A program made the translations under genes and the position numbers. This document shows positions 7,918 through 62,518 of a stretch of 64,000 nucleotides of DNA, piece after piece. Under the pieces are notes generated by a model. The model saw only the letters and a program-made list of their open reading frames with translations. It was not told where the DNA came from and made no database searches. Position 1 is the stretch's first letter. The number at the start of each line of letters is the position of its first letter. Source of the stretch: a virus; the IMG/VR virus record IMGVR_UViG_3300043122_000050. The stretch is one strand, 5' to 3'.

Positions 7918-7946
7918 GACAGCCTCCATTCGTTTTCAATGAGTCA

Positions 7947-45571: not shown

Positions 45572-46698
45572 TTACTCCGTAACTGGTAGGTTCTTCATCG
45601 CATTAGATGAATATTCCTTGATTTTTTCCAAGACAAGGTCAGCTGTCTTCTGCGGATCACCCCCACCATCCACACTAATGGAAATTTTATCTACCATCAT
45701 CATGGGGGCGTTTACACCGGGCAGTCGATTATAAGAAGATGTTCTGTAAGGATCAAATGCCGGGCGATTCAGGTTATCCATAGTGACTTTCTCTTGGAGA
45801 TTAGAGATAGCTGTACTTGTAGGGAAGTCAGCAGAACTCTTAACTTTTTCAAGGTGCTCTTCAGCTTTTGAAGCATACACACTATGGGCAACATTCAGTG
45901 CGATTGTTGCAGCTACCAAGGCTGCAATTAGTGGGTGTTTGGCTATCACGCTAAGTATTCCTCCTACCATTCCACCAGCGGCACCTGCCCCATTGACAGC
46001 AGCAATACCACCAGCAATCTTGATTAAGTTGGAGGCGATCAACCCAAGTCCCACAGCAAATGCTGTAGTCTTCAAGCCTATCTCAGCCCAAGCATTATCT
46101 TGAAGAAATTCAAGGAAGTCTTTGGTATAAGATTCACCGCCCTTCAGACCAACAGAGATATCTTCCAGTACAAGGAATAGTATACCTGCGGCTGCTGCGA
46201 TTCTACCAAACCTTGCGGCAAGAAGTAAAGCCATTCCTGCTATTCCTGCCATCCCCTCGTCTGAAACCTCAAAATACCTAGCCATCCTTGAAAAGCCGCC
46301 TATTATGTTGTCAATGCCTACCACAACCCTTTTAAAAACATCTCCTAGGTTATTCCAAACACCTCCCAACCTTCGCGCCATTTCATAGTTATCCCTCATA
46401 ATATCTGAGAGGGAGTTAAAGATTTTTGCAAACCCTTGCTCACCACCATTCTTGGAGAATATACCTACAAACTTTTCAAACTGGAAGTTCATCCTTCCTT
46501 GAGCAACAATAGATGTACCGAGCGCAATTTGGTATGCATTGTTTGCTTCAGACATCTTTTCCATGTAAGCTGCCATTTTTGGTAGCATTTCATTAGGGTC
46601 AAGTTGTCCAGCTTCCATCATTTTGTTAAGAGCTTTGGTGTCTCCACCAGTCATAACTTCAGCGGCAATTCTAACTGCTGCTGGTAATCTTTCAGCTA
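45572..46698 (-). CDS. Tape measure protein, exon 2 of 2
   Basis: The frame is open from 46698 (..AERLPAAVRIAAEVMTGGDTKALNKMMEAGQLDP..). Gly/Ala-rich TM-like region. Joins in frame to 47717..48896. Confidence 0.75.
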
Positions 46699-47716
46699 CG
46701 TTTGTGTTCAGGAGAGGTCGTTAATCTCTCCCCGCTTTATTCAAGCTGCTATATGTTTCCATATAGACCAGACTATATCTTGTTGCACATGTGCGCAACC
46801 TCACCATTTCCACTCACTTGAGTGTACGCCCGTAGGCTAGTCGTTGAAGTTTACAACTACCAACTATATTTACAAGATATATGTTTGAAACCTCTACGTC
46901 TTTTTATATCGTAGATATGATCAAGTTTCACACTCTTGTTTGTACACAAATCATAGATTTCTTTCGGGCCTACGCCCCTCTCTATCATTTGGCAAATCCA
47001 TTCCACCGTTTTCTCAGACAACCTTTCGGACTTAGCCTTTATTGGAATATCTGGTAAATTCTTTGTTATCTCAGTCCAGTTAGTTTTGGATTTAATCTCC
47101 ATAACTGCTGTTCTTGAAAGGTTGTACTCTTTAGCAAGATCAGAGTTTCTTGCCCCGTTATATAACTTCCAGTAAACCTCTAATACCTGATCACTAGATA
47201 GGATTGATCTACCGTTTGATTCTCCAACATTAGTGTTAAGTCCGTTAGAAAAAGCATGTTGCTGATTTTCTTCCCTTGTAACCCACTCTAGGTTTGATAA
47301 GGTATTATTTGTCTTAATCCCGTCAATGTGGTTGACTTCACTCTTAAAGTCTGGGTTTGGTATGTAAGTTAGAGCTACAAGTCTGTGTATCAGGAAAGCT
47401 CTAGCTACACCATCGTCACATTTAATATTAACCCTTAAATAGCCATTCCTAATGAGTCTGGGTTTCATTAACCTGTTTCTGTGAAGGCTAAAAACATTAC
47501 CCTGAGTATCTATCTTGTAGTTCTTTGCAAATGGAATTTCTTTCATATAATTCTCCTTACTTAGTCATTCTGGAGTTTGTAGTTGTCTTACCTGCTGATC
47601 GCCCAATCTTGACAATTTTCAAACATTCACGCTCGATATTACTATCCACGTTGTAGTTTGTCAAGCTCTAAGGGGTTTCCAGCAATTAAATGAGTTTAAA
47701 GTCAGCTATTATGTTA
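46699..47716 (-). mobile_element. Group I intron (T4 td-like core) in the tape measure gene, carrying a homing endonuclease ORF
   Basis: The 5' exon ends GUCAGU, which pairs with GCUGAC 10 nt into the intron (U.G at the splice site). The intron ends ..GAUUAACGACCUCUCCUGAACACAAACG. Conserved AACGACUA and GAUAUAGUCUGG blocks are present. Confidence 0.8.
46857..47546 (-). CDS. Intron-encoded HNH_3/NUMOD4-type homing endonuclease
   Basis: HRLVALTYIPNP and VNHIDG.K.NN..SNLEWVT motifs, with C-terminal HTH-like repeats. AAGGAGA RBS. Collinear with 59288..59971. Confidence 0.8.
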   Translation of the reverse strand: MKEIPFAKNYKIDTQGNVFSLHRNRLMKPRLIRNGYLRVNIKCDDGVARAFLIHRLVALTYIPNPDFKSEVNHIDGIKTNNTLSNLEWVTREENQQHAFSNGLNTNVGESNGRSILSSDQVLEVYWKLYNGARNSDLAKEYNLSRTAVMEIKSKTNWTEITKNLPDIPIKAKSERLSEKTVEWICQMIERGVGPKEIYDLCTNKSVKLDHIYDIKRRRGFKHISCKYSW

Positions 47717-48896
47717 ACTGACCGCGAAGTTCCTCCGCATAAACCTGTTGTTTACTTACCATTTGCGACACTGCTCGAAAAGAACCTTTCATGGCCTCTT
47801 CATCAAGACCCATCACAGTGCCGTATTTCATAAACGATTTGAAGATTGTTTGTTCTTGTCCGCCAAGGGCTGTACCTTGAATGGAAGCTGCGAGCTTAAC
47901 AAACTCAGGCCCAAGACCTCTTACCGTTTTACCCATCTCTGCTCCTACAGAGTTGAGGAAAGCCATGTTCTCTGCTGCTGCTTGTTCTGACCCAGATACA
48001 GCCAGCAAAGCGTTCTCTACAGACTTAAGCTCTTGTCCAATCTTATTGAAGTTGACAGCAGCGTATGCAGCACCGAAACCCGGAAGTAATCCAGACATAC
48101 TACTAGAAGCAGCTCCGACAGCACCACCTACTGTAGCACCGCCAAACATACCTCTACCACCCGGTCTTCCAGCTCCACCCCCTCCCATTCTAGAAGCAAT
48201 GGCTTGAGCTTTCAATTCAGCAGCAGTGATAATAGCAGCAGCTCTCTTAGCCCCAGCTTCTCTGATAGCTGCTGTACGTTGAGCCATGATAGCTTCACGT
48301 CTAGCTACGTTCTCTTGGATTCTAGCTAAGTTTTGTGCAGCTCTTGATCTCCGCATATCTTCACGCATTGCAGCAGCGTGAGATTTATCCATACCCTCGT
48401 ATGCAGATTGCTTAGCTCCAAACAACTGATTGTACATTGCCTGCTGGGCATTTCTGGCTTTGTTCGTCATATTAGACGATCCACCAGTTAGTCTACCTAC
48501 ACTCTCCCTGAAGTTTGTTTGCCAAGCCTTAGCATTCTTACCAACTGCTCCGGGGCCAGACCACTTCCTAGTTTGCCTTGTAGCCCCTTCCCCAAACAAT
48601 TTATCATACATTGCTTGTTGGGAAGCTCTACTAACTTTGTTGTTTGCTTGTTGTATCTTTCTAGTAACAGCAGCTCTTTTATTAAGAACCTTATTACCAT
48701 CAGAGATAGCTTTGTTTAAATTCTTATTCTGTGTAACTAAGCTAGAAGCTTGTTTAGCAGACTTCTTAGCGCCAGCCTCCATGTTATGAAGACCACGCTC
48801 AATATTATCTAAAGATTTGCCCAGACGATCAATAGACTTCTGGTCTACCTTAATACCAATCTGAGCAAAATAATCAGCAATCTTTTGTCTTGCCAT
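47717..48896 (-). CDS. Tape measure protein, exon 1 of 2
   Basis: Long Ala/Gln/Lys-rich helical sequence ending ..QQVYAEELRGQ(L). A stop occurs 2 codons into the intron. Confidence 0.75.
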
Positions 48897-48914
48897 TATT
48901 CCACCATTCGTTTA

Positions 48915-49106
48915 CTATTGTTTTTGTTTAGGAGCTGGTGTTGGAGCTGTCAATGTATGGTGAGCATCCATAACTTCAAGGATGTCATACATATCCTCTA
49001 CATCGTATATTGTTTGAAGATCATTCAATGTAGCAAGTTTCAGCTCACTCGTAATAATAGCGAAGATATCAAAGTCTTGTGAAAACTCTTTAGAAACCCT
49101 TCTCAC
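48915..49106 (-). CDS. -1 frame extension ORF of the tail assembly chaperone (gpT-like part)
   Basis: This frame is open back to about 49175 and is offset by -1 from 49139..49531. A T5 run (plus-strand A5 at 49169-49173) is a candidate slip site. Confidence 0.45.
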   Translation of the reverse strand: MRRVSKEFSQDFDIFAIITSELKLATLNDLQTIYDVEDMYDILEVMDAHHTLTAPTPAPKQKQ

Positions 49107-49138
49107 TTCATTACTAACGATCTTGTCCGATTCAGAGA

Positions 49139-49531
49139 TTAGTTGCTTTCTTCTGAACCGAACAGTGTAAAAACCGAGCCGTAGTTAAACTCCACAATCT
49201 CTTTCACCAGAGTGAACAGCTTGCCATACTCACCAGAGAACTCCATATCGAAGTTAATGGCCATACTACCCTTAGTAGCACTTGCAGATACAAGCTCTTT
49301 AATAAGGCTTTCTACGTCTACAGTGTCAAGGTTATCAAACAATTTCTCCATAGCCAATCCCATAGGATTTGCATCAGCTTTCTCATCAGATTCACCGCCC
49401 TTCAAGAGTTCTGTGAAAGATGGGCCAATAAGCTTAGTCAGTTGCTTTAGAAGTTTAATCCCTTTAGTGGCAGGGATAGTGGACAACAGGAATTCTTCGC
49501 CGTTGATAGTAGTTGTCTTTTGCTTAATCAT
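49139..49531 (-). CDS. Tail assembly chaperone (gpG-like)
   Basis: AAGGAGGAA RBS. 130-aa acidic protein between the tube and tape measure genes. Confidence 0.6.
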   Translation of the reverse strand: MIKQKTTTINGEEFLLSTIPATKGIKLLKQLTKLIGPSFTELLKGGESDEKADANPMGLAMEKLFDNLDTVDVESLIKELVSASATKGSMAINFDMEFSGEYGKLFTLVKEIVEFNYGSVFTLFGSEESN

Positions 49532-49558
49532 AAAATAAGTTCCTCCTTAGGAATGTAG

Positions 49559-50098
49559 TTAAAAGCCAATAGCAGAAGATACTGTCTTCACTGCTGATTG
49601 ACCCGCTTGTGCAATCTTGTCTACTCCAGCTCCAAGGAACCCAGCAATATCTTCTAAGAATTGAGGTCTTGATCTAGAGTTACCACCAACCCAGATTACG
49701 TTGGTATTCAACATTTGAATAGTCCAAGTACGAGTAGATAGTTCGGTTGAATAGTTTAGTTCTGAGTAGCTAGAAACAAAAGCATTCTCTGTTTGTACTT
49801 TACTTGTCCCTGCTGTATCCTCTAGAGAGATACTTAGTCTGCCACGCCCTGTAGTAATATCTTGAGAGATAATATCTGACAGAACATCGTTAGCAACGGA
49901 GGTTTGTAAAAGTTCTACACTAAGAGTGCAGGATGTATCTTGTGTTCTAACTCTTGAATGCTGTCCTTTGATCCCCTTAATGATCTTATATCTTTCTGGA
50001 AAAGACATAGAGATACTAACGATACCACCTACTTGGTAATCACCAGCGATAAAGAGTTTTAGGTCAGCTGGTTTATAAGTTTTAACTTGAGCTGCCAT
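49559..50098 (-). CDS. Tail tube-like protein, paralog 3
   Basis: Shares Y.P.D, ..L.Q(T/S)S.(A/S)N..LS and R(T/E)W blocks with 50098..50604 and 50660..51184. Confidence 0.55.
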   Translation of the reverse strand: MAAQVKTYKPADLKLFIAGDYQVGGIVSISMSFPERYKIIKGIKGQHSRVRTQDTSCTLSVELLQTSVANDVLSDIISQDITTGRGRLSISLEDTAGTSKVQTENAFVSSYSELNYSTELSTRTWTIQMLNTNVIWVGGNSRSRPQFLEDIAGFLGAGVDKIAQAGQSAVKTVSSAIGF

Positions 50099-50604
50099 TA
50101 GATAACTCCTAGATCACTGAGAATAGGGAGAGCACTTGCACCAAGACCAATAATGTCTAGTACAGTGTTGCCTTCCTGATTACCACCGATACTCAAGGCT
50201 GCTTCAGAGGTTCCTAACACCCATGTACGGGTTGTCAAGGATGCACCAAAAGAAGTGTCAGGAATATCTTCAATCCATGCTGTACCAGCAAAGAATGTAG
50301 TGGAACCTTTCTGATCTTTAATAAAAAGGGGAAACTTACCCATCTGCGTTGCAACATCTACGTTGTAGATTGCCGAGAGGATATTGTTTGCAGAAGACGA
50401 TTGAGCTAAGGTCAGCTCGACTGTGTAACCTTCGTCTTTGCGATAAATGCGGGCTTGTTCACCATCCATGCTCTTCATGGCATCAAATGGCTTTACATCT
50501 TTTCTAATACTGATGAATGTGTCTGATGCATATCCATCTAGCTTATAGAATCCACCTAAGAGGACTGTAACATCTTTAGGTGAATATAGAGCAATACTTG
50601 CCAT
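50098..50604 (-). CDS. Tail tube-like protein, paralog 2
   Basis: See paralog 3. AAGAGG RBS. Confidence 0.55.
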   Translation of the reverse strand: MASIALYSPKDVTVLLGGFYKLDGYASDTFISIRKDVKPFDAMKSMDGEQARIYRKDEGYTVELTLAQSSSANNILSAIYNVDVATQMGKFPLFIKDQKGSTTFFAGTAWIEDIPDTSFGASLTTRTWVLGTSEAALSIGGNQEGNTVLDIIGLGASALPILSDLGVI

Positions 50605-50621
50605 ATTCGCCTCTTAGAAAT

Positions 50622-50639
50622 GGGGCTGTTTCCAGCCCC
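50622..50639 (-). terminator. GC hairpin between tube paralogs 1 and 2 (attenuator or partial terminator candidate)
   Basis: GGGGCTG-GAAA-CAGCCCC followed by ATTTCT on the minus strand. Confidence 0.4.
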
Positions 50640-50659
50640 TATTCACTTTAATGGATTCC

Positions 50660-51184
50660 TTATGGAGTCCACTGTGCTCCAACAGTACCACCCAGAGCAG
50701 CAACAGAGTTGGCATCGTCAGCACTGAAGCGAGCGTTACCAGCAATGGTGGTGTTGAGCGAAGCAGCGTGGATCACCCACTCACGAAGTTCCATAGAGTT
50801 GCTGAAAGCACTGTTAGGTACAATAGCAATGTAGGCTTCGTCAGAGAAGTAGACAGAACGTCCAGTAAGGTCTTTGATTTGCAGAGAGAACAAGCCATCT
50901 GAGTTCAGACGTGCTCTATCGTACTCGTACAGCAAACTAAAGATATCGTTACTGTTGGAAGTTTGTTGCAGAGGAACAGTGATTGTAGCAGAGCTATTAC
51001 TGTTAAAGATACGAGTCTTGGTATCATCTGCACCGTAGTACATGGTGAATGTTTCAGCATTTCTTTCGATAGAAACAATGCTATCTTCACTGAAACCTGA
51101 TACAGTGTGCACAATCCCAGTAGCAGGGTGTGTGATAATCACACTAACACTATTAGGGCTGTAAGTTTGAAGTCTTTGTGTCAT
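50660..51184 (-). CDS. Tail tube-like protein, paralog 1
   Basis: TAAGGAG RBS. Lies directly downstream of the sheath-like gene. Confidence 0.55.
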   Translation of the reverse strand: MTQRLQTYSPNSVSVIITHPATGIVHTVSGFSEDSIVSIERNAETFTMYYGADDTKTRIFNSNSSATITVPLQQTSNSNDIFSLLYEYDRARLNSDGLFSLQIKDLTGRSVYFSDEAYIAIVPNSAFSNSMELREWVIHAASLNTTIAGNARFSADDANSVAALGGTVGAQWTP

Positions 51185-51195
51185 TTCCTAACTCC

Positions 51196-51507
51196 TTATA
51201 CGAAAACTTTACCTTGGATTTTGACGTAGTGAATAGCGCCTGCTAGGCGAGCTTCAAAACTCAAGTCTTCCAAAGTACGGGTTGCACGGAGGTTAGGGTC
51301 AACAGCCAAAACATCAGGTACACTGATCACAGGAGCAGGACTATCAGCCAGGAAGTTATTACGAATACCTTCTTGAATCTGCGCTCTTACTTCTGCTTCA
51401 ATAATAGAAACTCCAGCCGCCGTATAGGCAATTTTTGAAGTATTAACCAAGCGGAACCAGATACGTTCACGCATACGAGCGGTTAGCCAAAGTACACCAA
51501 TCATAAC
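51196..51507 (-). CDS. Tail sheath-like structural protein (DUF3383-type), exon 2 of 2
   Basis: The frame is open upstream of the track's GTG start. The C-terminus ..RLAGAIHYVKIQGKVFV is typical of this family. Confidence 0.65.
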   Translation of the reverse strand, partial: VMIGVLWLTARMRERIWFRLVNTSKIAYTAAGVSIIEAEVRAQIQEGIRNNFLADSPAPVISVPDVLAVDPNLRATRTLEDLSFEARLAGAIHYVKIQGKVFV

Positions 51508-51840
51508 CGTTACTTTCACAAAGAGGCGTTAACTCTTTGCTGGTTTACTTTTACATAAACTCCACTCACACTTTCATGTAAGACAAGACTATATCTTCAC
51601 CCTCTTAACAAGTAGGGTGTCTCCCATTTCGCCTCACTTGAGGCTACGGCATTCCTGCCTAGTCGTTGAACCTTCCCCTCATCAGGGCTTGGCTGCTGAT
51701 TGCCACATAATGTATTGTTCTCAGACATTCACGCTTAACTATATCTCAAGTTTACGTTGTAGTCAACACACCTTCGCGGGATTCCAGCAATTAAAGAGAT
51801 TTTTCACTAACCAATTACTTGATTAGGCGACCTTTTTCAA
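51508..51840 (-). mobile_element. ORF-less group I intron (333 nt) in the sheath-like gene
   Basis: Shares UUUAAUUGCUGGAA, CUACAACGU, AGCGUGAAUGU, AACGACUAG and GAUAUAGUCUUG blocks with the TMP intron. The 5' exon ends in U (UCGAU/GUCG P1). The intron ends ..AGUAACG. Confidence 0.75.
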
Positions 51841-52800
51841 ATCGACAAATTCACCACCAACCATCTTACCGTTAGTAGTTGCGTTTACACCACCAATGTT
51901 CTCATAAGTGTTTACGTTCTTATTAAGAAGATTGACAGTTTCAGTACCAGTTAGTTTATCTACCGAAGTACCAGTGAGGGTTTTATAAGCCCAAGTGTTA
52001 CTGCCCGGAAGAGGTTGAATCTGATAAGCAGTCCAAGCACACTCTGGATAGTTAGCATCGGCATCGGCTTTCCACATGATAGCTGTCTTGTTATAACCAA
52101 GGTCTTTCAGTTGGGAGGCAACGTCAGTGGTTACAGCAGTTTTGACAGCAGCAGAGTTGGTGGAAGTGATATACACTTTCTCACGAGCTTCAATGGCTTC
52201 AGCCAGCTCAAGGATAACAGCGTCAGAATGATCTTCAGCGTTCAGTGCAATCCATTGGTTGTTAGAGAACTCAACAGCGGTGAGGGCGTCAGACCAACTT
52301 TCAGTGGATGCTTTCTTAACAATACTTAGGTTGCTAGAAGTAGTGATACTCCACTCAGCACCCGGCACTGCAACATCAACTTCAAAAGTACCGTCAAGGT
52401 TGTCTGTGAAGTTTACACCAGTGATTTGGAGTTCGGCAGCTACAGCCAGATCAAGAGCAGTGATAATCTCAATGGCAGTGGCAGAAGCATCAGAGGTGAT
52501 TGCAACCTTGACACCATTAATGGTTACGCTATACTCGGTGCTATTAGAAACAGTAGCAACAGTACCGTCTACACCATCAATCTGCTTACGGCCAATGATT
52601 ACAGAGGCTGGAACAAGCTCTTGACCAAAGTAACGAAGACCAGCTTCATATACCGAGGAACCAGAACGGAAATCTTCAGCGAGAGCGCCAAAGGATGTAT
52701 ATGTACGTGTACGTTCAGCGAACGCTGTATGCTCAGCCAAGAAAAGAGGGATGTTAAAAGCAGCTCTACTTACTGCTTGTGTCTCCCTGCTGATGCTCAC
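51841..52800 (-). CDS. Tail sheath-like structural protein, exon 1 of 2, GTG start without an obvious RBS
   Basis: Ends ..NGKMVGGEFVD and joins to VMIGVLWLTARM.. in exon 2. Total 423 aa. Confidence 0.65.
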
Positions 52801-52857
52801 CTGAACAATGTCGGTTAAAACTGTGATTTTAGTCTCCCACGGAATCCATGATTCCTG

Positions 52858-53568
52858 CTATTTGTTTAAGTATTGATTTTTGATGTAAGTAACAAGTACA
52901 TCGGTCAATTCTTTGTTGATTCCGCCTGAAACGAAACTGAAGTTGTGTACTTCAAAATGACATTCTCGGCAAAGAGTTACAAGGTTGGTTTCTTCATACA
53001 CCAATTCTTCGTTTCCACGAAAGGGTAGTATATGGTGTGCATTTAATTGGCACCCCTTATTATTGCAAAGAACACAGGTGAATGAGTCCCTTTCAAAAAT
53101 CTTACGAGAGAGTCTTCCACCAGTTTCACGTTTCTTAATTAGAGTTTCTGGATCAAGACCTAATGACGCTCTGTATTTCCTAAATCTTTCCTTCTGCGAT
53201 TCTGTAGCCCTCTCTAGTCTGAGACATCCACAACTTTGACTTTCACCAGCTTTTAATGTTCTCAGTTCTACTAAGGCGGTTCCACCGCAATCACAGATAC
53301 ATTCGCAAAGTCTTTTACCAGTATCTTGCCTGTTAGTTACAACTAATCTACCAAACCTATTGCCCACAGGGTCTTCTACAGGCCGAGCTTTACTCTTAGA
53401 GATGCAGCCGCAACTTTTAAATATTCCCAGTTTAGATTTTGATACAACTGTAGAGTTTCCACAAATACATAAGCAATTGTAGTACATTCGCTTAAATTTT
53501 TCATGTATGCCCGCCTCGGAGACGACTGTAAGATAGTTATAGGTTTCCCCTATTTCAACTTTTCTCAA
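52858..53568 (-). CDS. Free-standing HNH endonuclease
   Basis: CVLCN...NAHHILPF......NLVTLCRECH..VH, plus several N-terminal CxxC-like pairs. Confidence 0.8.
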   Translation of the reverse strand: MRKVEIGETYNYLTVVSEAGIHEKFKRMYYNCLCICGNSTVVSKSKLGIFKSCGCISKSKARPVEDPVGNRFGRLVVTNRQDTGKRLCECICDCGGTALVELRTLKAGESQSCGCLRLERATESQKERFRKYRASLGLDPETLIKKRETGGRLSRKIFERDSFTCVLCNNKGCQLNAHHILPFRGNEELVYEETNLVTLCRECHFEVHNFSFVSGGINKELTDVLVTYIKNQYLNK

Positions 53569-53590
53569 TAGTTTTTACTCCTTGCAAGTA

Positions 53591-54133
53591 TTATTTAATA
53601 ATTTGTGTAATTATAACTGGAGGTGAATTATCTAGTTTCTTGTAAGTACCAGTTAACTCTACTGTCTCAATTATATCTACAGATTGTCGGGCCTCGACTT
53701 GATACGCAAAGAAGACATCAATCTGAAAGCACATATACCAATCAGTTTCACGCTTCTTTGGAACTCTTCTCACACTACCTTTACGCATAAAAGAAAGGGC
53801 ATTCTTTAGAAATGCTTCTTGTACTGGGGTAGAGTCGATTTGAAAATAAAACTCGTTAGCCATATCTGCTGCAACGAAGTCGTCATCTTGTTTACCAACA
53901 AACTCAAATAAAACTCTCGTTTCAAACTGACTTACTATTTGTTGTTCACCGATTGAATTTGTCAGTGTAGAGATATATTCTCTTCCAACCTGATCAACTT
54001 GGATAACATCAAATACAATATATTCTGTAGGAACCTCAGGGCCGTTTGTATAGGCTTGTACGATTTGTGTAGTGGGGAATACTAAAGCAAGACTGTCATA
54101 CAGCTTGTCTCTTAAATCTGTGTAGATGCTCAT
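53591..54133 (-). CDS. Head-tail joining/neck-region protein, 180 aa. Start moved to 54133
   Basis: AAGGGA RBS and an ATGA overlap with the upstream gene. Assignment by position only. Confidence 0.5.
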   Translation of the reverse strand: MSIYTDLRDKLYDSLALVFPTTQIVQAYTNGPEVPTEYIVFDVIQVDQVGREYISTLTNSIGEQQIVSQFETRVLFEFVGKQDDDFVAADMANEFYFQIDSTPVQEAFLKNALSFMRKGSVRRVPKKRETDWYMCFQIDVFFAYQVEARQSVDIIETVELTGTYKKLDNSPPVIITQIIK

Positions 54134-54510
54134 GTTAATTCCCTTCTCACGCAAATGCTCTTAAAGTGTGACAAGACTCCCATCTTATAAGAGATAACCT
54201 TCATTACTTCCCATGTTTTACCATCGAAAACGAACGTATCTCCTTGAGTGGGGGTAACACCCTCTGTACGCTGAACCAGCGCAGAAGTGGTGTACACCTT
54301 GACCATTTCCTTACTTCTATCACCTTCTGGCATCAACATAGTCTCTGTTGATTTCAAGACTGGTTGTATGTTAGCTTTCATCACTACAGCTACTGGGGCA
54401 TTTGGTTTATAAACACCTTTCACCCAAGTACCGCCACTACTTCTATTTACAGTGATTTCTACTTGACCATTTAGAGGAAGTAGTAAAGGAGGGGAAATCC
54501 CTAAGCTCAT
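54130..54510 (-). CDS. Head-tail joining protein, 126 aa
   Basis: GAGAGGTG RBS. Assignment by position. Confidence 0.5.
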   Translation of the reverse strand: MSLGISPPLLLPLNGQVEITVNRSSGGTWVKGVYKPNAPVAVVMKANIQPVLKSTETMLMPEGDRSKEMVKVYTTSALVQRTEGVTPTQGDTFVFDGKTWEVMKVISYKMGVLSHFKSICVRRELT

Positions 54511-54512
54511 TG

Positions 54513-55007
54513 TTACACCTCTCTAACTTGGTATTCGACAGAATCAAGAAGTAGTCCAGATTCAATTAAAGGGTCAATAGAAGATTCACCTCTCCATTCC
54601 CTCATAGCTAATGTAGCTTGACTAAGGGTACGTGGCCTGAAGTTGATAATACTTTGTCTAAGCTGCTTTACAGCAAGCTCTCCAAGTGCTTCCATCTTAT
54701 CTTCTGGAGTGATCTTGCCTTGTAAGACAAGACGCTGTAATCTTTTAATGGCTCTACGCATCTCAGCGTGGTTTCCTTTATCGGAAACAGCTTGATCAAA
54801 GAAGGGTCTTGCTGGAGTAGTTGTACCCGGAAATGCACCACCGTTCTGGTGCCCATCATTTACCAGCTTAGCAACTTCTGCTACACTAGCCTCACCTCTA
54901 GGATCAGGATATTCAGTATCAGAGAAGAATCCCCACTCCACTTTCATTCCGTTCATCTTACGAAGGGACTTGAGCATCTTATCCAAGGCTCTGGTGTTCT
55001 TCTTCAT
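54513..55007 (-). CDS. HK97 gp10-like head-tail component
   Basis: The N-terminal ..ALDKMLKSLRKM....VEWGFF pattern and the size are typical of the gp10 family (from memory). Confidence 0.5.
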   Translation of the reverse strand: MKKNTRALDKMLKSLRKMNGMKVEWGFFSDTEYPDPRGEASVAEVAKLVNDGHQNGGAFPGTTTPARPFFDQAVSDKGNHAEMRRAIKRLQRLVLQGKITPEDKMEALGELAVKQLRQSIINFRPRTLSQATLAMREWRGESSIDPLIESGLLLDSVEYQVREV

Positions 55008-55441
55008 TAAAAGAACTCCGTCTCATCCTCATAAATTCTTTTACCCTGTGAAAACCCTTTATAGAAGGTTGGGCAAAGATTATCTGGATTACTATCGTTT
55101 TGAATCATATCACTCTTAGAGATACCACCAGCGTAAGCTCTAGCTCTGTCAAGAAGCATTTGAGGATTTCTGATAAGCTCAATAAGAAAGTCTTTATAAT
55201 TCTTGAACATCTCAGCACCGTACACTTCAATATCACCTGTACGCTGACGGGAGTATTTAGCAAGGCTACCAAGAATGTATCTTGCAGCTTCAAGAGCTGC
55301 TGCTGTCTCATTGTCGTTATACTTATTCAGAAGATACTCATATGTTTCATCTGAAAGGTACTCGAATTCTGTAGCTGTATCCCCTACAATCAACCGCACT
55401 CTGTCTGTGGCGGATAAAGCAGGGTTGTTTGTAAATGCCAT
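55007..55441 (-). CDS. Head-tail connector/adaptor-like protein, 144 aa
   Basis: AAAGGAGAA RBS. First gene after the capsid terminator. Confidence 0.5.
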   Translation of the reverse strand: MAFTNNPALSATDRVRLIVGDTATEFEYLSDETYEYLLNKYNDNETAAALEAARYILGSLAKYSRQRTGDIEVYGAEMFKNYKDFLIELIRNPQMLLDRARAYAGGISKSDMIQNDSNPDNLCPTFYKGFSQGKRIYEDETEFF

Positions 55442-55494
55442 TCTATTCTCCTTTCTTTTTGAGAAGATTCACAACTGGATAGTCATAAACCTTC

Positions 55495-55526
55495 TTAGAA
55501 AGAAAGGAGCCTCTTTCAAGGCTCCA
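55495..55526 (-). terminator. Rho-independent terminator downstream of the major capsid gene
   Basis: Minus strand GGAGCC-TTGAAAGA-GGCTCC followed by TTTCTTTCT. Confidence 0.65.
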
Positions 55527-55540
55527 ATTCTTAATGTTGC

Positions 55541-56569
55541 TTAGTTGCTAGTGGTACCCTTAACTACTCCGGCTGGGCGGCGCAGTACGTTCAAGAAATT
55601 CGACTCAGATTGCAGTTCGATTTTCTCGCCTTTAGGATCAAGGAACTCAAAGGCATAGGCTTCTTCACCAACAGTGTTAACGAAGTCAAACTTGTTAGCT
55701 GGGCCGTAGTAGGTTACGAACAGGTCTTCAACACCCATTGGAACCATAACAGCATCGTTAGCAGGAATCAGGCGACTACCGTTATAACTACCGCGATACT
55801 CAACAAAGCGCATACCACCGTGGAAGAACTCACGATACATAGTGGATGCACCGCCCAGACGCTGACGTAGCGGCTCTTGGGTAGAGGCGTAGAACTGGTA
55901 AGCAGCTTTAACGCTATCATGAGCAATCAGCTTGCCGAAGAACTCAGGCGAGCACAGAGCCATAACACCAGTCATTTGACCACCGTTACCAAGGTTGTCT
56001 TGGATGTGGGCAACTACTTCTTCAATCTTAGCCAGTACGTCAGTGGTGTTAGTGCCTAGAACGAAGTCAACAGACTTCTGAGTAACACCAAACGAGGTGA
56101 ACCAGTTAACCGATACGCTACCGTTAGGAGCATATACAGTACCAGCGGTCAGGGCTTGCATACGAGCAGCTTCAAGAGTCCAAGCATGGGACTGACGAAT
56201 ACGTTGCAGTTTACGAGCACGAACAGCAGCCAAGGTTTCAGCAGCATTAGGCTGACCATAAGCACGCTTGCCTTGTACGTCCTGTGGAGTGATATAATCA
56301 TCCAGTGGGAAGTGTGGGATTGGGAAGCTATGCAGCTTACGGGTGAAATCTTTGTTTTGGTTGTTACGATCACCACGAACGCGGTCAAGGATCAGACCAG
56401 CGGATTCGGTGATTTCTTCAACGGTGATGGTATGATCAGCAACGCCATCGTTGGCGAACAAGCCCATTTCATTGACCAAGCCCCACTGGTTAGGAACCAT
56501 CAACAGTTCTTCAGTGTAGTCTGTCAGTTCAAACTGGCCATTAGCGCCAAAACTTCTTACGAGTGCCAT
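55541..56569 (-). CDS. Major capsid protein (lambda gpE-like family)
   Basis: 342 aa. Follows the protease/scaffold and the gpD-like gene. Strong AAGGAGAA RBS with a terminator downstream. The sequence pattern resembles the Phage_cap_E family (from memory). Confidence 0.7.
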   Translation of the reverse strand: MALVRSFGANGQFELTDYTEELLMVPNQWGLVNEMGLFANDGVADHTITVEEITESAGLILDRVRGDRNNQNKDFTRKLHSFPIPHFPLDDYITPQDVQGKRAYGQPNAAETLAAVRARKLQRIRQSHAWTLEAARMQALTAGTVYAPNGSVSVNWFTSFGVTQKSVDFVLGTNTTDVLAKIEEVVAHIQDNLGNGGQMTGVMALCSPEFFGKLIAHDSVKAAYQFYASTQEPLRQRLGGASTMYREFFHGGMRFVEYRGSYNGSRLIPANDAVMVPMGVEDLFVTYYGPANKFDFVNTVGEEAYAFEFLDPKGEKIELQSESNFLNVLRRPAGVVKGTTSN

Positions 56570-56594
56570 ATTAGTTATTCTCCTTAAATTTAGA

Positions 56595-56966
56595 TTAGAT
56601 AGCTTTTTCTACGATCAGACCTTTGGCCTTGAGAGCTGCGTGTACTGCAACTTTCTCAGGGTCAGTGTCTACATCAGTACCGTAGGTCAGCATGTAATCT
56701 TTCAGGATTACCGGGCCACGAGACAGAACTAGCAAGTTGTGGGTGCCTGGAGCGAGGTCTTTAACACGCTCATCAATCAGGACATAGGAAGCATCAGCAG
56801 TGGTGAGGACGGTGACAAGTGCGCCAACATTGTCCAGAACAGCGCCAATCTTCATACCAGATACAACAGTTACAGCGACAACATCACGGCAATAAGCAAC
56901 AGCAGGCTCATATTCGTGGGCGATGATGGCCGACAATCTTTGGCTATCGTTAGCGATTACAGTCAT
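56595..56966 (-). CDS. Head decoration protein (gpD-like)
   Basis: 123 aa, located between the protease/scaffold and the capsid gene, as in lambda-like head modules. Confidence 0.55.
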   Translation of the reverse strand: MTVIANDSQRLSAIIAHEYEPAVAYCRDVVAVTVVSGMKIGAVLDNVGALVTVLTTADASYVLIDERVKDLAPGTHNLLVLSRGPVILKDYMLTYGTDVDTDPEKVAVHAALKAKGLIVEKAI

Positions 56967-56990
56967 TATTTTATTTCTCCAATTAACTAA

Positions 56991-58355
56991 TTAAGATTTT
57001 GCTTTATTAAGTTGAGCTTTCAGAATCTTTGCTGTATCGCTCAGGGCTTCTTCATCGCCTTGATCACCTACGCCCAGTTCTTTAAACAGGTCAGTTGCCT
57101 CGACGGCTTTTGCTTTCTTCTCAAAGGAGCCAGCTACAGTGTCAAATGCAGCATCTTCCAGCGAGCCAAGGGAAGCCATCAAAGCCTCCGCTTCTTCTTT
57201 ACCAACACTTGCTTCCAGACGAGCTTGACGAGCATCTAGTTTGGCTTGTGCGGCTACAGCTTCAGCTTCCAAACGAGCAGCTTCAGCTTCTGCTTGGAAT
57301 TGAGCCATCTGTTCTTTAATAGAGGTGGCTTCTGCCTGTGCAGCAGTCATAGCTTCAACAGCCTGTGTCAGTTGCGCCTCCATCTGAGTTTTTTCATCAG
57401 TCAGGGCAGCAAAAGCGGCCTGAAGTTCTACGAGTTCTTGCATTTTGGCAGTATCCCCTTGTTTCGATTTATTTAGAAAACGAGCAGTAAGCATTTTGGA
57501 ATTAGTCTCCCCACTTGCTACGGTTGATAGATAAGAGTAGAATTCTTCAACTTCCATAGCTTTATCAGCCAAGCCAAGTTGAATAGCCTTATCGGCAAGG
57601 AATGTCTTAGCCTCTGTGTTAGTCACAGCTTCAGGAGTCATTCCTCTCATTTGAGCAACATGGGAAGTAAATTCCCCATAGAGCACGTTAACCTTCTCTT
57701 GAAGGTCACTAAGAAACTCTTCTGCGAAGTCGCCTTCAGCATTAAAAGGAATCTTAGATTTACCAGCAAAAACATAAGTGTCTTCAACACCCATTGTCTT
57801 CATTGCTTTATTGGTATTACGAAGTCTGACAACAACACCAATACTTCCCACTTCAGCAGAAGGGTTCATGATGATTTCATCAGAGATAGAAGCTAGAGCA
57901 TAAGCAGCAGAAGCAGCCATACCGTCTACATAAGTAATCACTTTAACGCCAGCTTCATCAGCCATTGTGCGAATACGTTTAGCAGATTCAAATACACCGT
58001 AAGCTTCACCACCGGGACTATCTGTATCAAACACAATAGTCTTTGCACCAGAGCTAATCAGCGACTCTACGTCAGCAAGCATACTTTGATAGCTTGTTGG
58101 AGATTCGCCACACATAGGTTGGTAGTGCAAGTAAGTAAGTGGCCCTTTAAGCTCTACAATCCCTACCTTGGTATCGGAGTTGTAAATAAGCTCACGGCTT
58201 TCACTCTTAGCTTTATTTTCAAGAGCTAGCTGAATCTCTCCAGCATTACGATCTTCCAGAAGGGAGGCAATCTTTTCAAAGTATTGAGCCTCCATCATCT
58301 GAGGTGTTGCAACAAGCTTATTTGTTAGCCTAATAAGACTATGAGCTTTTGACAT
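56991..58355 (-). CDS. S49-family (SppA/ClpP-like) head maturation protease fused to a coiled-coil scaffold domain
   Basis: VFDTDSPGGE and GMAASAAYALAS (catalytic Ser region). The C-terminal half is an Ala/Glu/Gln-rich coiled coil. Confidence 0.85.
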   Translation of the reverse strand: MSKAHSLIRLTNKLVATPQMMEAQYFEKIASLLEDRNAGEIQLALENKAKSESRELIYNSDTKVGIVELKGPLTYLHYQPMCGESPTSYQSMLADVESLISSGAKTIVFDTDSPGGEAYGVFESAKRIRTMADEAGVKVITYVDGMAASAAYALASISDEIIMNPSAEVGSIGVVVRLRNTNKAMKTMGVEDTYVFAGKSKIPFNAEGDFAEEFLSDLQEKVNVLYGEFTSHVAQMRGMTPEAVTNTEAKTFLADKAIQLGLADKAMEVEEFYSYLSTVASGETNSKMLTARFLNKSKQGDTAKMQELVELQAAFAALTDEKTQMEAQLTQAVEAMTAAQAEATSIKEQMAQFQAEAEAARLEAEAVAAQAKLDARQARLEASVGKEEAEALMASLGSLEDAAFDTVAGSFEKKAKAVEATDLFKELGVGDQGDEEALSDTAKILKAQLNKAKS

Positions 58356-59105
58356 TAACTGTTCTCCAGATTATCTGTAGAGTTGTCTTGACCGGCGACA
58401 CTATCACTAGTACCATTACCAGAACCTTTAGCCATTCCATCTCCAGCTCTGCTTCTATTTTGAGGAAGCAAATCTTCATCCACTGGCTGATCTTTAGGGT
58501 AAGGAGTAGCACCAAAGCCTCTCTCACGAATGATGTTGGCAATCTCACGATCAAACTCAATAGCATTTACGGAGAAAATACGTTGTACAAGTTTACTGAA
58601 CTCATCCAAGTCTTCTTCGTCAAGGTCGGTGTAGGTGAACTTAGGAAGCTCTTCATCATCCCAGCCATTCAGGGCGAATGTTTGAGGGATAAGGTCTTTG
58701 TTAAGAACATCTGCAATCTCACGAAGGCGAGCTTCAATGGCCATAGCCATGATGGATGTTTTAGCGCCAGCAAGGGCAAAAGAGCCTACTTGATCTTGAC
58801 CAAGTTTTAGGAAGTCAGCAAACAAAGAAGTGAGGATTTTGTAGTCCCAACGTGTGATAATTGCTGATGTGTCATATTGCTTACCAGAAGCAACAGACAA
58901 GAGTTCAAACTCAAATAGAGGTTGTCTTGATTCAGGATCATATGCGTTTGGAAGGACAATACCGGATTGTTCATTACGTTCAAGGTTTCTCACCATGTTG
59001 TAATAATAATCACGGATAGATTTCTGTTCTTCTGTAGCATCGGGGCTAAGATAGATGGCAGGAATTTTTATTACAGGAGTTCCCACCATATTTCGGGTAA
59101 TTCCA
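58355..59105 (-). CDS. Portal protein, exon 2 of 2
   Basis: The frame is open to 59105 (..(I)GITRNMVGTPVIKIPA..). Overlaps the protease start by 1 nt (TAATG). Confidence 0.75.
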
Positions 59106-60125
59106 CGCTTGTTCGACGAAGATCGTTACACTTCGCCCGTTCTCTTATGAACTGCTGCATGTTTCCATGCAGGCCAGACTATATCATCACCCTTCTACTT
59201 GAGTTAGGGTGCCTACCATTTCCACCCACTTGGGTGTACTCCCTTGCGGGATAGTCGTTGGACGCTTACGATTGAATTGCTGATTATTTAAAAGTTATAT
59301 TCTTTAGAGATATTTGTGTAGATTTTCCTTTTACGCAAACCATGTAGAAGGTTGGCATTAATTTCGGAATTTCTACTTTCCGAGATTATCTCGGCGTTTG
59401 TCTTACCTTCGGCAATAAGATCACAAACCCATCTTATAGTGCTTTCGGAGAACCTTTTAGCTCTGTTTACTTGAATATTGTATTCTTTTGAAATGTGTCT
59501 CCATGCTTTCTTAGCACGAACCATTGATATAAAAGAACGATGAACACCTGTGGTGCGCTCTATGTCAATGTTCCGCATACCGCTCTGAAGCAGTTCACAC
59601 ACTTCTCTTACTTCTGCTTCTGTGTACTTTGAGAGGTAGTGGTTTTCACCAATACTATTGTCAAGTAACCCATTCTCATGGGCATGTTCATAATTACCTT
59701 TATGACTAACCCACTCAAGGTTTTCTACACAGTTATTAAGCTTGTTACCATCTTTATGGTTAACGAGAGGTAGACTGTCTACGTTAGGGACAAAAGCTTC
59801 TGCCACAAGTCTGTGTACAGAGTGTTTCTTAACGCTTCCATCTTTGTAGTAAATAGCGACTCTTGCATACCCGGCATTTGAAATATCGGGAGTAAGTGCT
59901 GCACCAGTCTGACCAATCACTGCACCATCTTCAGTAACGAAGTAGTTATCAGTTTTTGCAATTCTTTTCATTTAAGCCTCCTACAGATTCGGAAGCAATT
60001 CAATCGTTTTCGCTCAGGATTACCCACGACATCACTCGTTTGGGCTTCCCCTGAATTAGATAGGTTTTGGAGCTAGGCTCCGAGGTCATCATACCAGATT
60101 TCTCTGTGTATGCCACTAGAAGTTA
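59106..60125 (-). mobile_element. Group I intron in the portal gene, carrying a homing endonuclease ORF
   Basis: P1 is GCCAU/GUGGC (U.G at the splice site, 9-nt loop). A 5-bp P10 forms between UGGAA of exon 2 and UUCUA next to the guide. The core blocks AACGACUAUCCC, CAAGUGGG and GAUAUAGUCUGG are present. The intron ends in G. Confidence 0.85.
59288..59971 (-). CDS. Intron-encoded HNH_3/NUMOD4-type homing endonuclease
   Basis: HRLVAEAFVPN and VNHKDGNKLNN..ENLEWVS motifs. TAGGAGG RBS. Full-length paralog of 46857..47546. Confidence 0.8.
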   Translation of the reverse strand: MKRIAKTDNYFVTEDGAVIGQTGAALTPDISNAGYARVAIYYKDGSVKKHSVHRLVAEAFVPNVDSLPLVNHKDGNKLNNCVENLEWVSHKGNYEHAHENGLLDNSIGENHYLSKYTEAEVREVCELLQSGMRNIDIERTTGVHRSFISMVRAKKAWRHISKEYNIQVNRAKRFSESTIRWVCDLIAEGKTNAEIISESRNSEINANLLHGLRKRKIYTNISKEYNF

Positions 60126-60850
60126 ATGGCCTCTTGTTCTTCTATTCCAGTGCGGTATTTCCATGCAAGCCAAGCATTCTTTAGCATACTTGAACCTTCA
60201 GGGTTATCCCTCTCAGGGTTCACTCTAAAAAGCATAAACTTGTTCCTAGGGATCGTAATAACATTACCATTACGAGCACTTAGGGAGTTGTATCTACCGT
60301 ACTGATTAACCGTTGTGAGGTCTTGCTCTACAGCTTGTAAGTCTCTACCATCGTCACTAAATACCCAACCAGAGATTGTATCTTGTGAGCGAATAGGAAG
60401 TTTCTTCCAGCCAATCAATCCATCATTGAATTTAGAGCCTGTAGCTTTAAGGCGTCTTCGATACACCTTCTCTTGTACAGAGAATCCATAGACATAGCTA
60501 CTAGATACGTCTTGGATGAATGAGGCCCAAGTAGCCTCCATATCGTCTGTACATTGCTGAAGGAATGCAGCCTTCTTTTCTTGTTCTGGTGTAGCCCCTT
60601 TAGGCGCTTCCACTTTCCAATCAATCCGTGCTAACATCATTTTATAGAGGTTGATTGCACTGTTGATTGTAGCGTCTTTCTGCATATTCTTGTAAGTGTT
60701 GATAACCTTTGGCCATCGTAGCTCTGTACGAGCTTCTTCAAGAATAACTTTATTACTGACTTTTAATCCGGTTGTACCTACTTCACCCATTCTAATTCTG
60801 GGTACAGAGGCATCTCCTGATTCTAGTCCAGCAGTATCAAGCTCTGCCAT
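60126..60850 (-). CDS. Portal protein, exon 1 of 2
   Basis: TAGGAGG RBS. Immediately downstream of terL. Ends ..YRTGIEEQEA(I). Exons 1 and 2 together give 491 aa. Confidence 0.75.
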
Positions 60851-60858
60851 CTAACCTC

Positions 60859-62177
60859 CTAAACATGGAATGGGTTTTCTCTTTGCATATTAGGTAATAC
60901 GAAAGAGGTGGGTATTTGTGCTGATCTTGCTAAGTGTTTGAATGCGTCTGAGCAGGAGTCAACGATATCGTCCTTGACCTTGCGGCTACCGTCAAAAGCT
61001 TCTAGTTCGTCAACCAATTCATCATTCCACGGCCCTCTCACCATCGAAACATGCTTAGCTTCAGCTACAGCAGCGAATGGTTGGAATCTCAGCACTTTGG
61101 ATTGACTTGCTTGATAGATACGTGCATAGAAACCACGTTCAGCAAGCTCTTTAACGATTGACTGAGCGTAAGCTTTACCAGCAGCTCCGGGGTCAGCAGG
61201 GATTACAATATCTGTTGTTGGGCCATCATGAATGGCTGTCTGGATAATCTTCTCCAGAACACCATGTGCTCTATCTCTAAAGCGTTCAAGGTCTTCAATG
61301 TAGTAACGTCCATACTTATCTCTGGACATTAGAACACCAGCAGTCCAGTCTGGATTTGGATTAGATTCGGAAGGAATACTTCCGCTAATATCCCAAGCCC
61401 TTACTCTCTTCATGATATGATCTGTTGGCCTTGTAGGGACAATCTCTAACCAATCCCCTTTGAAGTAGCCAGCGGCCTCTTCTTTAGCATACCAAGAGCC
61501 GTCTAGAAGACGCATCCTCTCGATACGTTTCAAACCAAGCAAGAATGCTAGGTATTTAGGGTTCTTCTGAATGCCAATTGGGTTATCATACACATTAGCA
61601 CTTACAAATGTCATAGAGAGGATGTGTTCCTCTTTAATATGTGGAACCTTCTTTAGCATCTCCTCTTTAGTAAGAGCAAACACAGGTTTACCGCCATCGT
61701 TTGTGAAGAAGCGGATTACACCGTCCTTCTCTGGCAGAGGAATCCCTGTCTCTGGGTCAAGGTGCCATTCCACCCAGTTACGGAGAAAGGAGTTGTACAG
61801 AGGGTTACAAGTCATTACTAGCTGACTGCTCATTTGTGCTTTAGAACGCAAACGAGACATTAGATAGAGAACACTTACTTCTTGTTGGTGTTGAGCTTCG
61901 TCAAACACTACGAGAGAATATTGTCCACCGTCGAAGTTATATCTGTCTTCTGGTCTATCAAGGCCAGCAAAACTAATCACTGCCCCGCTTGGGAAAGTTG
62001 CTGAGAGTTTCTGTTCGTGAAACTTTGGCTTGAACGGTTTATACATCTGTTTGGCTTCATCAAACAAGCCACCAGATTGTGTTAGTTGTGTACGTGTCTG
62101 TCGAATAAACACAGCACGGAAATGAGGGTCGCCAATTTGACCTAGTGCTTTAAGTAGAGCACAATGTGATTTACCAC
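60859..62177 (-). CDS. terL: Terminase large subunit, exon 2 of 2
   Basis: Begins in mid Walker A (..GKSHCALL). Walker B VVFDEAQ. C-terminal nuclease-type acidic residues (AWDISGS, DDIVDS). Confidence 0.85.
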
Positions 62178-62424
62178 CATGATTGTTCAAGAAAGTTCGT
62201 TACTCTTTCTCCGCTTTCGCAGCTACATATTCCTATGCAGACCAGACTATATCATCATCCCGTAGGATGCCCACCGCTTCCACTCACTTGAGTGTACTCC
62301 CTTTCGGGATAGTCGTTACGCTTTCTGAAATTAATCAGCTTAGCTCGGTATTGTCCGTTCTGGAGTTTCACCGAATTCAATGGGTTATTCGATCAACATT
62401 ACTGTTGAAAGGGACTGTAGGTCA
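62178..62424 (-). mobile_element. Compact ORF-less group I intron (about 247 nt) inside the terL Walker A codons
   Basis: P1 is GGGAU/GUCCC (9-nt loop, U.G at the splice site). Core AACGACUAUCCCGAAAGGGAGUACACUCAAGUGAGUGG...GAUAUAGUCUGG. The 3' boundary was chosen so that the ligated exons read GGGAGCGKS. Confidence 0.7.
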
Positions 62425-62518
62425 ATCCCGCGCCGCCGCCGAAAATTATAATGTCAGCAGGACAGTTTAAAAACATCTTTTGTTTCGGGCTTGAAGGCCC
62501 ATAAGCTTGATTTGTCAA
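62425..62518 (-). CDS. terL: Terminase large subunit, exon 1 of 2 (31 codons plus 1 nt), TTG start
   Basis: AAGGAGG RBS 6 nt upstream of the TTG. Reads (M)TNQAYGPSSPKQKMFLNCPADIIIFGGGAG. This ORF is not in the supplied track. Confidence 0.7.

Follow-up and report, generated by a model that had tools for sequence, protein, structure and literature searches.

Four predicted group I introns of the T4 td/Twort kind in the tape-measure, tail-sheath, portal and terminase genes of a Pakpunavirus-related phage

The 64,000-nucleotide (nt) stretch of the IMG/VR virus record IMGVR_UViG_3300043122_000050, referred to here in its full length as the window, appears to derive from a roughly 90-kb myovirus that is distantly related to the PAK_P1-like (Pakpunavirus) phages. 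Its minus strand carries the genes for the tape-measure protein, the tail sheath, the portal protein and the large terminase (TerL), and each of these four essential late genes is interrupted by an insert with the hallmarks of a group I intron (Table 1). An earlier reading made from the letters of the DNA (the sequence-only reading) had described the inserts as four homologous introns resembling that of T4 td and had attributed them to recent spread within this genome. Our analysis leads us to suggest that they are very probably splicing-competent introns of the phage IA type represented by T4 td, T4 nrdB and phage Twort, that they were acquired separately and that they are mobile.

Table 1. 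Introns, exons and endonuclease genes of the window, and the introns of the related environmental contig L019 (JACCDZ010357403.1; positions are those of that contig). ORF, open reading frame; aa, amino acids.
Feature	Position	Strand	Remarks
Tape-measure exon 1	47717-48896	-	ORF stops in frame 2 codons into the intron
Tape-measure intron	46699-47716	-	1018 nt; ORF 46857-47546 in the P6 region; RF00028 matches in halves
HNH homing endonuclease gene in tape-measure intron	46857-47546	-	229 aa; Pfam HNH_3 and NUMOD4; phrog_59 2e-47
Tape-measure exon 2	45572-46698	-	predicted spliced product 768 aa
Free-standing HNH endonuclease gene	52858-53568	-	just upstream of the sheath gene; Pfam HNH and PHROG HNH families
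Tail-sheath exon 1	51841-52800	-	DUF3383 profile 14-367, ending exactly at the last exon residue
Tail-sheath intron	51508-51840	-	333 nt; without ORF; RF00028 full model
Tail-sheath exon 2	51196-51507	-	DUF3383 resumes at profile position 368
Portal exon 1	60126-60850	-	Portal_Mu profile 2-154
Portal intron	59106-60125	-	1020 nt; ORF 59288-59971 in the P6 region
HNH homing endonuclease gene in portal intron	59288-59971	-	227 aa; Pfam HNH_3; phrog_59 1.6e-46
Portal exon 2	58355-59105	-	predicted spliced product 491 aa
TerL exon 1	62425-62518	-	TTG start, 31 codons and 1 nt; AAGGAGG upstream
TerL intron	62178-62424	-	247 nt; without ORF; inside the Walker A coding sequence
TerL exon 2	60859-62177	-	predicted spliced product 470 aa
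L019 portal introns 1, 2 and 3	147-410, 431-725, 1025-1304		sites differ from the window's
L019 sheath intron	7779-8096		site lies after sheath residue 413; a free-standing GIY-YIG gene comes next

Each insert contains one copy of the plus-strand 15-mer AGRCMAGACTATATC (at 46765, 51581, 59171 and 62239); these four are the only copies in the window, whereas none is expected and none appeared in 100 shuffles. The 8-mer TAGTCGTT, with copies at 46838, 51660, 59252 and 62310, is on its own not beyond chance (1.27 copies expected, four reached in 3 of 100 shuffles); each of these copies lies 73-81 nt from a copy of AGRCMAGACTATATC, and the sequence CAAGTGRG stands between the two blocks in all four inserts. 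The three blocks were thus found where the sequence-only reading had placed them, and the td intron's 3' end that it had quoted, GAUUAACGACCUUAUCUGAACAUAAUG, proved right on comparison with the T4 td sequence. The shared, near-identical blocks constitute the core that is universally conserved across this phage intron family, T4 td included.

When the window was scanned with the Rfam group I model (RF00028, gathering score 50 bits), three of the four introns passed the gathering score on the minus strand, namely the sheath intron over the full model (51565-51850, 106.6 bits, E 1e-26), the TerL intron (62223-62434, 65.8 bits, E 2e-14) and, through its 3' half, the portal intron (59155-59362, 53.5 bits). 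At a permissive threshold the model also matched the 5' half of the portal intron (59801-60135, 22.7 bits) and the tape-measure intron in two halves (46749-46981 at 32.4 bits and 47502-47750 at 22.5 bits). An ORF of about 690 nt separates the two matching halves in both of these introns; the matches at 47502-47750 and 59801-60135, which were considered as additional introns, are the 5' halves of the two ORF-containing introns and were rejected as such. We do not regard the low score of the tape-measure intron as a warning sign, because the ORF splits the intron and because the ORF-containing introns of T4 td, T4 nrdB and Twort nrdE, included as controls, likewise miss the gathering score. Its 5' half can be aligned with that of the sheath intron (106 bits). 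No further group I intron was detected by Rfam in positions 1-45000 of the window, even at a permissive E-value. By sequence, all four inserts are assigned to the group I introns of the T4 td/Twort kind, that is, of IA type with P7.1 and P7.2.

The structure predicted for the 3' domain agrees with this assignment. An RNAalifold analysis of nine aligned introns from the window phage and its relatives gave P7, two hairpins (P7.1 and P7.2) between P7 and P3', P8, P9 and, at the end, hairpin P9.2, whose loop is UAACG. P7 is invariant (GACUA/UAGUC, 5 pairs), and 25 of the 35 predicted pairs, distributed over P7.1, P7.2, P8, P9 and P9.2, are kept by compensatory changes across the nine introns. All ten introns of the clade form the long-range pseudoknot helix P3 at the homologous position, with 6-7 bp and in nine different sequences, while P4-P6 were judged through the Rfam alignments only. 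Hairpins P7.1 and P7.2 between P7 and P3' are a hallmark of IA introns. In addition, a hidden Markov model (HMM) of the clade's 3' domain matches the introns of T4 td and nrdB end to end (scores of 83.8 and 85.5, respectively). The two covarying hairpins in the P7.1/P7.2 position, the td and nrdB matches and the 78% identity of the tape-measure intron to the Twort nrdE intron together point to subgroup IA2 (T4 td/Twort type), the choice of IA2 over IA1 and IA3 resting on homology to td.

The boundaries of the introns were re-derived from the minus-strand sequence, with the same result as in the sequence-only reading. In all four window introns, and in all six found in relatives, the base before the intron is a U that pairs with G (U.G) in P1, and the terminal base of the intron is G. 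P1 comprises 4-7 exon base pairs in these ten introns. In the window introns the guide that pairs with the last bases of the 5' exon begins 9-11 nt downstream of the predicted cleavage site, at which the U.G pair is located; the pairing is GGUCAGU/GCUGACU for the tape-measure intron, CGAU/GUCG plus 2 bp on the intron side for the sheath intron, GCCAU/GUGGC for the portal intron and GGGAU/GUCCC for the TerL intron. Reading through any of the 5' splice sites leads to an in-frame stop after 2-8 codons. Joining of the exons, on the other hand, yields stop-free proteins of 768 (tape measure), 423 (sheath), 491 (portal) and 470 amino acids (TerL), and thereby reproduces both the lengths and the junction peptides that had been proposed (..ELRGQL/AERLPAAV.., ..GGEFVD/VMIGVLWL.., ..EEQEAI/GITRNMVGTPV.. 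and ..FGGGAG/C/GKSH.., respectively).

In the joined proteins, single-stretch Pfam matches cross the junctions, with scores exceeding those of the separate exons. In the tape-measure protein TMP_3 matches residues 285-456 in one stretch, with the junction at residue 393, as compared to profile positions 5-113 in exon 1 alone. The spliced sheath protein matches DUF3383 with residues 8-374, the exons apart matching profile positions 14-367 and 368-421 and thus in exact continuity, and the whole 423-residue protein matches phrog_205 'tail sheath' in one stretch (3.5e-101). Portal_Mu covers residues 51-427 of the spliced portal protein, again in one stretch. For TerL the match to Terminase_6N starts at profile position 1; exon 1 encodes ..FGGGAG and contributes with its last nucleotide the first base of the Cys codon, so that splicing rebuilds the Walker A loop (GGGAG/CGKS), and residues 1-470 align in one piece with an uninterrupted Pakpunavirus TerL at 48% identity. 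The inserts interrupt the four host genes at precisely the junctions that had been proposed.

Further uninterrupted homologs come from relatives of the phage, all of them environmental contigs. The 89-kb viral contig L002/L016 has all four genes free of interruptions and gives no group I match (TerL 86%, portal 78%, sheath 54% and tape measure 33% identical). L001 has an uninterrupted portal gene whose product is 98.4% identical on the amino acid level, and a TerL gene (94%) that is uninterrupted at Walker A. The joined proteins are collinear with such homologs across all four junctions, which are crossed by L016 in the tape-measure protein, by L016 and L019 in the sheath and by more than 15 homologs in the portal protein; the best amino acid identities to uninterrupted alleles are 98.4% for portal, 94% and 86% for TerL, 54-56% for sheath and 33% for tape measure.

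Overlooked in the earlier account were the two ORFs within the introns: the tape-measure and the portal intron each hold an HNH homing-endonuclease ORF. Both are located between the P5/P6 and the P7 sequences and both are preceded by a Shine-Dalgarno sequence of their own, which in the case of the tape-measure ORF is AAGGAG upstream of ATG. The two predicted enzymes are only 32% identical to one another. The tape-measure enzyme shares 39% identity with I-TwoI over the N-terminal catalytic part and the portal enzyme 44% with the endonuclease of a portal intron in the related contig L024. The family to which both belong, phrog_59, is the commonest family of intron-encoded nucleases in the Bastillevirinae (PMC11878797). 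The free-standing HNH gene upstream of the sheath gene has no ORF at the equivalent position in L002/L016 or in L019, and it is a possible trans-acting mobiliser. L019 presents a similar arrangement, in that a free-standing GIY-YIG gene (L019:8163-8747) lies beside a sheath gene whose intron contains no ORF. These homing-endonuclease genes beside sheath genes are both absent at those positions in relatives. The combination of an ORF-less intron with a neighbouring free-standing endonuclease gene is reminiscent of 'collaborative homing' as described for T4 mobE (PMC2790892) and F-CphI of phage S-PM2 (PMC6083498).

How are the introns distributed among related phages? In the reference collection of sequenced phages no close relative was found, the DNA matches being confined to intron cores and the best TerL match to 48%, and the search for a host or prophage context in the genome collection gave only two distant contigs of metagenome-assembled genomes. 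Among the environmental contigs, L001 carries a different group I intron of 771 nt (L001:1553-2323) after TerL residue 434, with a phrog_2081 HNH ORF located 3' of P9. L019, whose major capsid protein (MCP) is 80% identical to that of the window phage, contains within 8.9 kb four group I introns (Rfam 69-101 bits), none of them with an ORF, and its portal introns 1 and 2 flank a 20-nt exon that encodes NMVGTPV. L024 has a portal intron with an HNH gene (L024:460-1460), 30 codons downstream of the window's portal site. The clade formed by the window, L001, L019 and L024 thus shows 11 insertion sites in TerL, portal, sheath and tape measure, seven of which, in TerL, portal and sheath, carry related introns in relatives and lie outside the window's four, and three of the portal sites fall within 33 nt of one another. 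A scan or a core-motif check of 19 more distant viral or metagenome loci (MCP 46-75% identical, apart from L024) found no group I introns.

The intron-less alleles of L001, taken as reference, also provide signs of mobility (p values from Fisher tests on aligned counts). The portal gene is 96% identical to that of L001 at the nucleotide level, yet around the insertion site (positions 720-765) 13 of 46 nt differ as compared to 47 of 1427 elsewhere (p = 8e-9). Twelve of these 13 differences are synonymous third-position changes within 40 nt just 3' of the site: at the start of exon 2 (59064-59105) 12 of 14 codons differ in this way while the protein is identical, and on the 5' flank 49 of 51 nt agree with L001. 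Likewise, 17 of 52 nt differ around the TerL site (p = 3e-6), where 8 of 9 codons at the start of exon 2 (62151-62177) are recoded synonymously. In both genes near-identity returns sharply beyond the recoded tract. A weaker cluster of differences surrounds the TerL intron site that is specific to L001 (p = 0.012). Enzymes of the I-HmuI type bind and nick on the 3'-exon side of the insertion site. The recoded tracts fit co-conversion of exon flanks from a diverged donor, as homing initiated by an endonuclease would bring about, or else selection for a flank that resists cleavage. With their presence and absence among near-identical alleles and their altered exon flanks, the portal and TerL introns have what is expected of mobile introns, and by these signs the introns look mobile.

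But are the four introns copies of one another? The claim that one intron lineage spread recently within the window genome to four unrelated target sites has some appeal, since all four belong to one structural family with identical core blocks, within the window the portal intron has its closest match in the TerL intron and vice versa (3' domains 78% identical) and the two endonucleases are homologous. The identities do not bear it out. They amount to 59-78% in the 3' domain and to 53-68% (MAFFT) or 59-69% (pairwise alignment) over the whole ribozyme, with the 32% between the endonucleases to be added, and the 5' domains fall into three types (AAUUGCUGG, AAUUCAGGG and AAUUCGGUG). In an identity ranking and a neighbour-joining tree that included 15 introns of other phages (about 150 alignable columns, no support values), the four window introns are dispersed and three of them have their nearest relative outside the window genome. 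For the portal intron this relative is the nrdA intron of Xanthomonas phage DES1 (84%), ahead of Pseudoalteromonas HP1 (81%); for the tape-measure intron it is one of the portal introns of L019 (83% in the 3' domain), and for the sheath intron it is that of the sheath gene in L019 (68%). Only the TerL intron is nearest to another window intron, that of the portal gene, followed by HP1 (75%). Among distant BLAST matches, the Twort nrdE intron, which carries I-TwoI, is the best for the tape-measure intron (78% in both halves), and introns of Staphylococcus, Aeromonas and Shigella phages are the best for the TerL intron. Introns of unrelated phages are thus as close or closer, which makes a recent intragenomic spread very unlikely; the tree itself does not resolve the history of the introns but provides no evidence for a burst. 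Each of the four, we infer, was acquired on its own from a pool of introns that phages widely share. Another reading would see in the inserts decayed relics that no longer splice, or the product of a mis-assembled contig, with the four genes truly broken or expressed as separate polypeptides. The Logan contig L017, which stems from an independent assembly of Sequence Read Archive (SRA) data, does break inside the portal intron, and this suggests that the repeated intron cores fragment and disturb assemblies. The same contig, however, has portal exon 2 attached to the 3' end of the window's portal intron, relatives assembled independently contain similar introns, the helices of the catalytic core are all intact and maintained by compensatory changes, and the junctions are nucleotide-exact and in frame in four essential genes, in one case inside the Walker A loop. 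We therefore consider it extremely unlikely that the inserts are relics or artefacts.

A more serious alternative to separate acquisition concerns an older spread within the clade, by ectopic transposition to 5' exons that happen to match the guide, either through reverse splicing or through off-target endonuclease cuts filtered for splicing competence; some of the window introns would then derive from introns at other sites in related phages. Three pairs of introns have the same guide and context at different sites of the same gene. They are the portal introns of the window and L024 (GCCAU/GUGGC, 30 codons apart), the sheath introns of the window and L019 (guide GGUCGCC, target CGAU, 93 codons apart) and portal introns 1 and 3 of L019 (guide UAGCGCC, target GCGU), and similarity between the targets of a pair is confined to the 4-5 exon nucleotides engaged in P1 (exon -1 to about -5). 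That four related sequences together have 11 insertion sites in four genes, and that the tape-measure 3' domain is close to that of an L019 portal intron, points in the same direction. Then again, the paired introns are only about 67-72% identical overall, so that any such events must be old. Surviving introns have to match the exon in P1 by whatever route they arrived, so the pattern does not identify the mechanism, and it comes from few samples without a statistical model. Mobility by reverse splicing has circumstantial support, mainly from introns in rDNA, and is without direct experimental support (PMC3984707). We consider ectopic transposition possible, though rather unlikely, as the source of the window introns, and it is with still more reserve, and as an unlikely if attractive idea, that we raise the thought that the clade may be a natural system of repeated guide-directed moves of IA2 introns to non-allelic sites.

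Our preferred reading, that of splicing-competent, separately acquired and mobile introns, would work as follows. The late minus-strand transcript would be translated up to the in-frame stop shortly inside each intron. The ribozyme core would fold P3-P9, including the IA-specific P7.1 and P7.2 hairpins and P9.2 with its UAACG loop, an external guanosine would attack after the U of the P1 U.G pair, and the freed 5' exon would then attack after the terminal G, whereby the reading frames of all four genes would be restored to their full lengths. The I-HmuI/I-TwoI-type HNH (NUMOD4) enzymes of the tape-measure and portal introns would presumably nick the intron-less alleles of co-infecting relatives, and repair of the nicked allele would introduce the intron along with neighbouring exon sequence. 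The two introns without an ORF, in the sheath and TerL genes, may be passengers of such events or may be mobilised in trans. Splicing, endonuclease activity and the route of acquisition are read here from sequence and structure, and several points weigh against this scheme. The tape-measure intron stays below the Rfam gathering score with its P6 region interrupted by the ORF, P1 of the sheath intron has just 4 exon base pairs, and there are phage group I introns that splice in vivo only (PMC11878797). Separate acquisition depends on about 150 alignable nucleotides and on a tree without support values. As regards mobility, the comparison of presence and absence with close relatives covers the portal and TerL introns, no close relatives having been found for the sheath and tape-measure introns, the recoded tracts could reflect selection for endonuclease resistance instead of co-conversion, and among the fetched relatives no match to a donor allele of the recoded portal tract was found.

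T4 (td, nrdB, nrdD), Twort and its relatives, and SPO1-like and Bastille-like phages are well-known carriers of group I introns that contain HNH or GIY-YIG genes. With T4 td and nrdB the window introns have in common the core blocks AACGACUA, P7.1 and P7.2, GAUAUAGUCU, P9 and the P9.2 hairpin with its UAACG loop, as well as an ORF in the P6 region (in td that of I-TevI), an in-frame stop past the 5' splice site, the U.G in P1 and G as the last base. Different from T4, however, their 3' domains are only 57-71% identical to those of td and nrdB, they reside in virion and packaging genes instead of genes of nucleotide metabolism, and their endonucleases are of the HNH/NUMOD4 and not, as in td, of the GIY-YIG type. 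With Twort and the Silviavirus group there are common features as well: the Twort nrdE intron and I-TwoI are the counterparts of the tape-measure intron and its enzyme (78% and 39% identity, respectively), and several related introns lie close together in late genes with tiny exons between them, which also holds for L019 (Twort orf142 has three introns, and Silviavirus relatives have four in tandem beside the sheath gene). Yet these phages are Herelleviridae of Gram-positive hosts whereas the window phage is Pakpunavirus-related, and host genes and insertion sites are others. The two intron enzymes resemble I-HmuI, I-BasI and I-TwoI, nicking HNH homing endonucleases from SPO1-like and Twort-like phages, in being intron-encoded, in combining NUMOD4 with HNH_3 and in having a C-terminal region with internal repeats, and the recoded tract on the 3'-exon side of the insertion site is as expected for the I-HmuI type; identity is at most 39%, though, and nicking by the window enzymes is predicted.

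The sequence-only reading had called the intron load unusually high. Four introns in 16 kb is indeed high, but such a density has precedents in Silviavirus, rV5 and the Bastillevirinae. Staphylococcus phage CIFT_MFB_MRSA28, a Silviavirus, has four tandem annotated group I introns (71-98 bits) within 1.15 kb (L035:1054-2207), downstream of its tail-sheath gene and a small virion-protein gene, and thus sets a precedent for dense introns in late genes. The TerL gene of rV5 contains two introns, and Bastillevirinae have up to six per genome (PMC11878797). Group I introns, often with phrog_59 HNH genes, have been described in terminase and virion genes of other phages (PMC4299906, PMC11878797, PMC3706429), examples being TerL of LL-H, Moonbeam and rV5 and the capsid and tail genes of Cluster J (PMC3984707, PMC4299906, PMC3706429, PMC11878797). 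In the Cluster J mycobacteriophages a related intron segment is common to the capsid-gene intron and to tail-gene introns (PMC3706429). Different from that of the window, the TerL introns of Aeromonas phiA009 and rV5 are not located in Walker A. A limited literature search found no earlier reports of introns in portal, tail-sheath or tape-measure genes. What is new here are accordingly the host genes (tail sheath, portal and tape measure), the site (TerL Walker A) and the phage lineage, and not the kind of element.

Some further features were noted in the vicinity. Directly downstream of the sheath gene (49559-51184, minus strand) lie three tandem paralogous genes for proteins of 179, 168 and 174 aa, all matching phrog_280 'virion structural protein', which are probably tail-tube-like. 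A match to the c-di-GMP-I riboswitch at 51131-51223 on the minus strand, overlapping the end of the sheath gene and the beginning of the gene that follows, reached 28.5 bits as compared to a gathering score of 35 (E = 0.05) and was set aside as probably due to chance. No tRNA genes were found in positions 1-64000 of the window; the related 89-kb contig has about ten (Rfam gathering matches) just upstream of TerL (L016:2001-3893).

For the annotation of such genomes the finding has a practical side, as gene callers would give eight fragments and 'hypothetical' pieces where the exact junctions give the true proteins. The understanding of how group I introns work remains unchanged. What would change is the known range of the td/Twort-type family, which is extended to virion-assembly genes of a Pakpunavirus-related lineage from environmental metagenomes. 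If the guide-directed moves within the clade were real, no other circumstantial case for ectopic transposition of group I introns in protein-coding phage genes would be as clear, with reverse splicing as a possible route. Finally, alleles with and without the intron that are 96% identical in nucleotide sequence and differ by a recoded tract with sharp limits, together with related introns located at different sites of one gene, may offer a system in which homing, co-conversion and ectopic movement of these introns can be studied.

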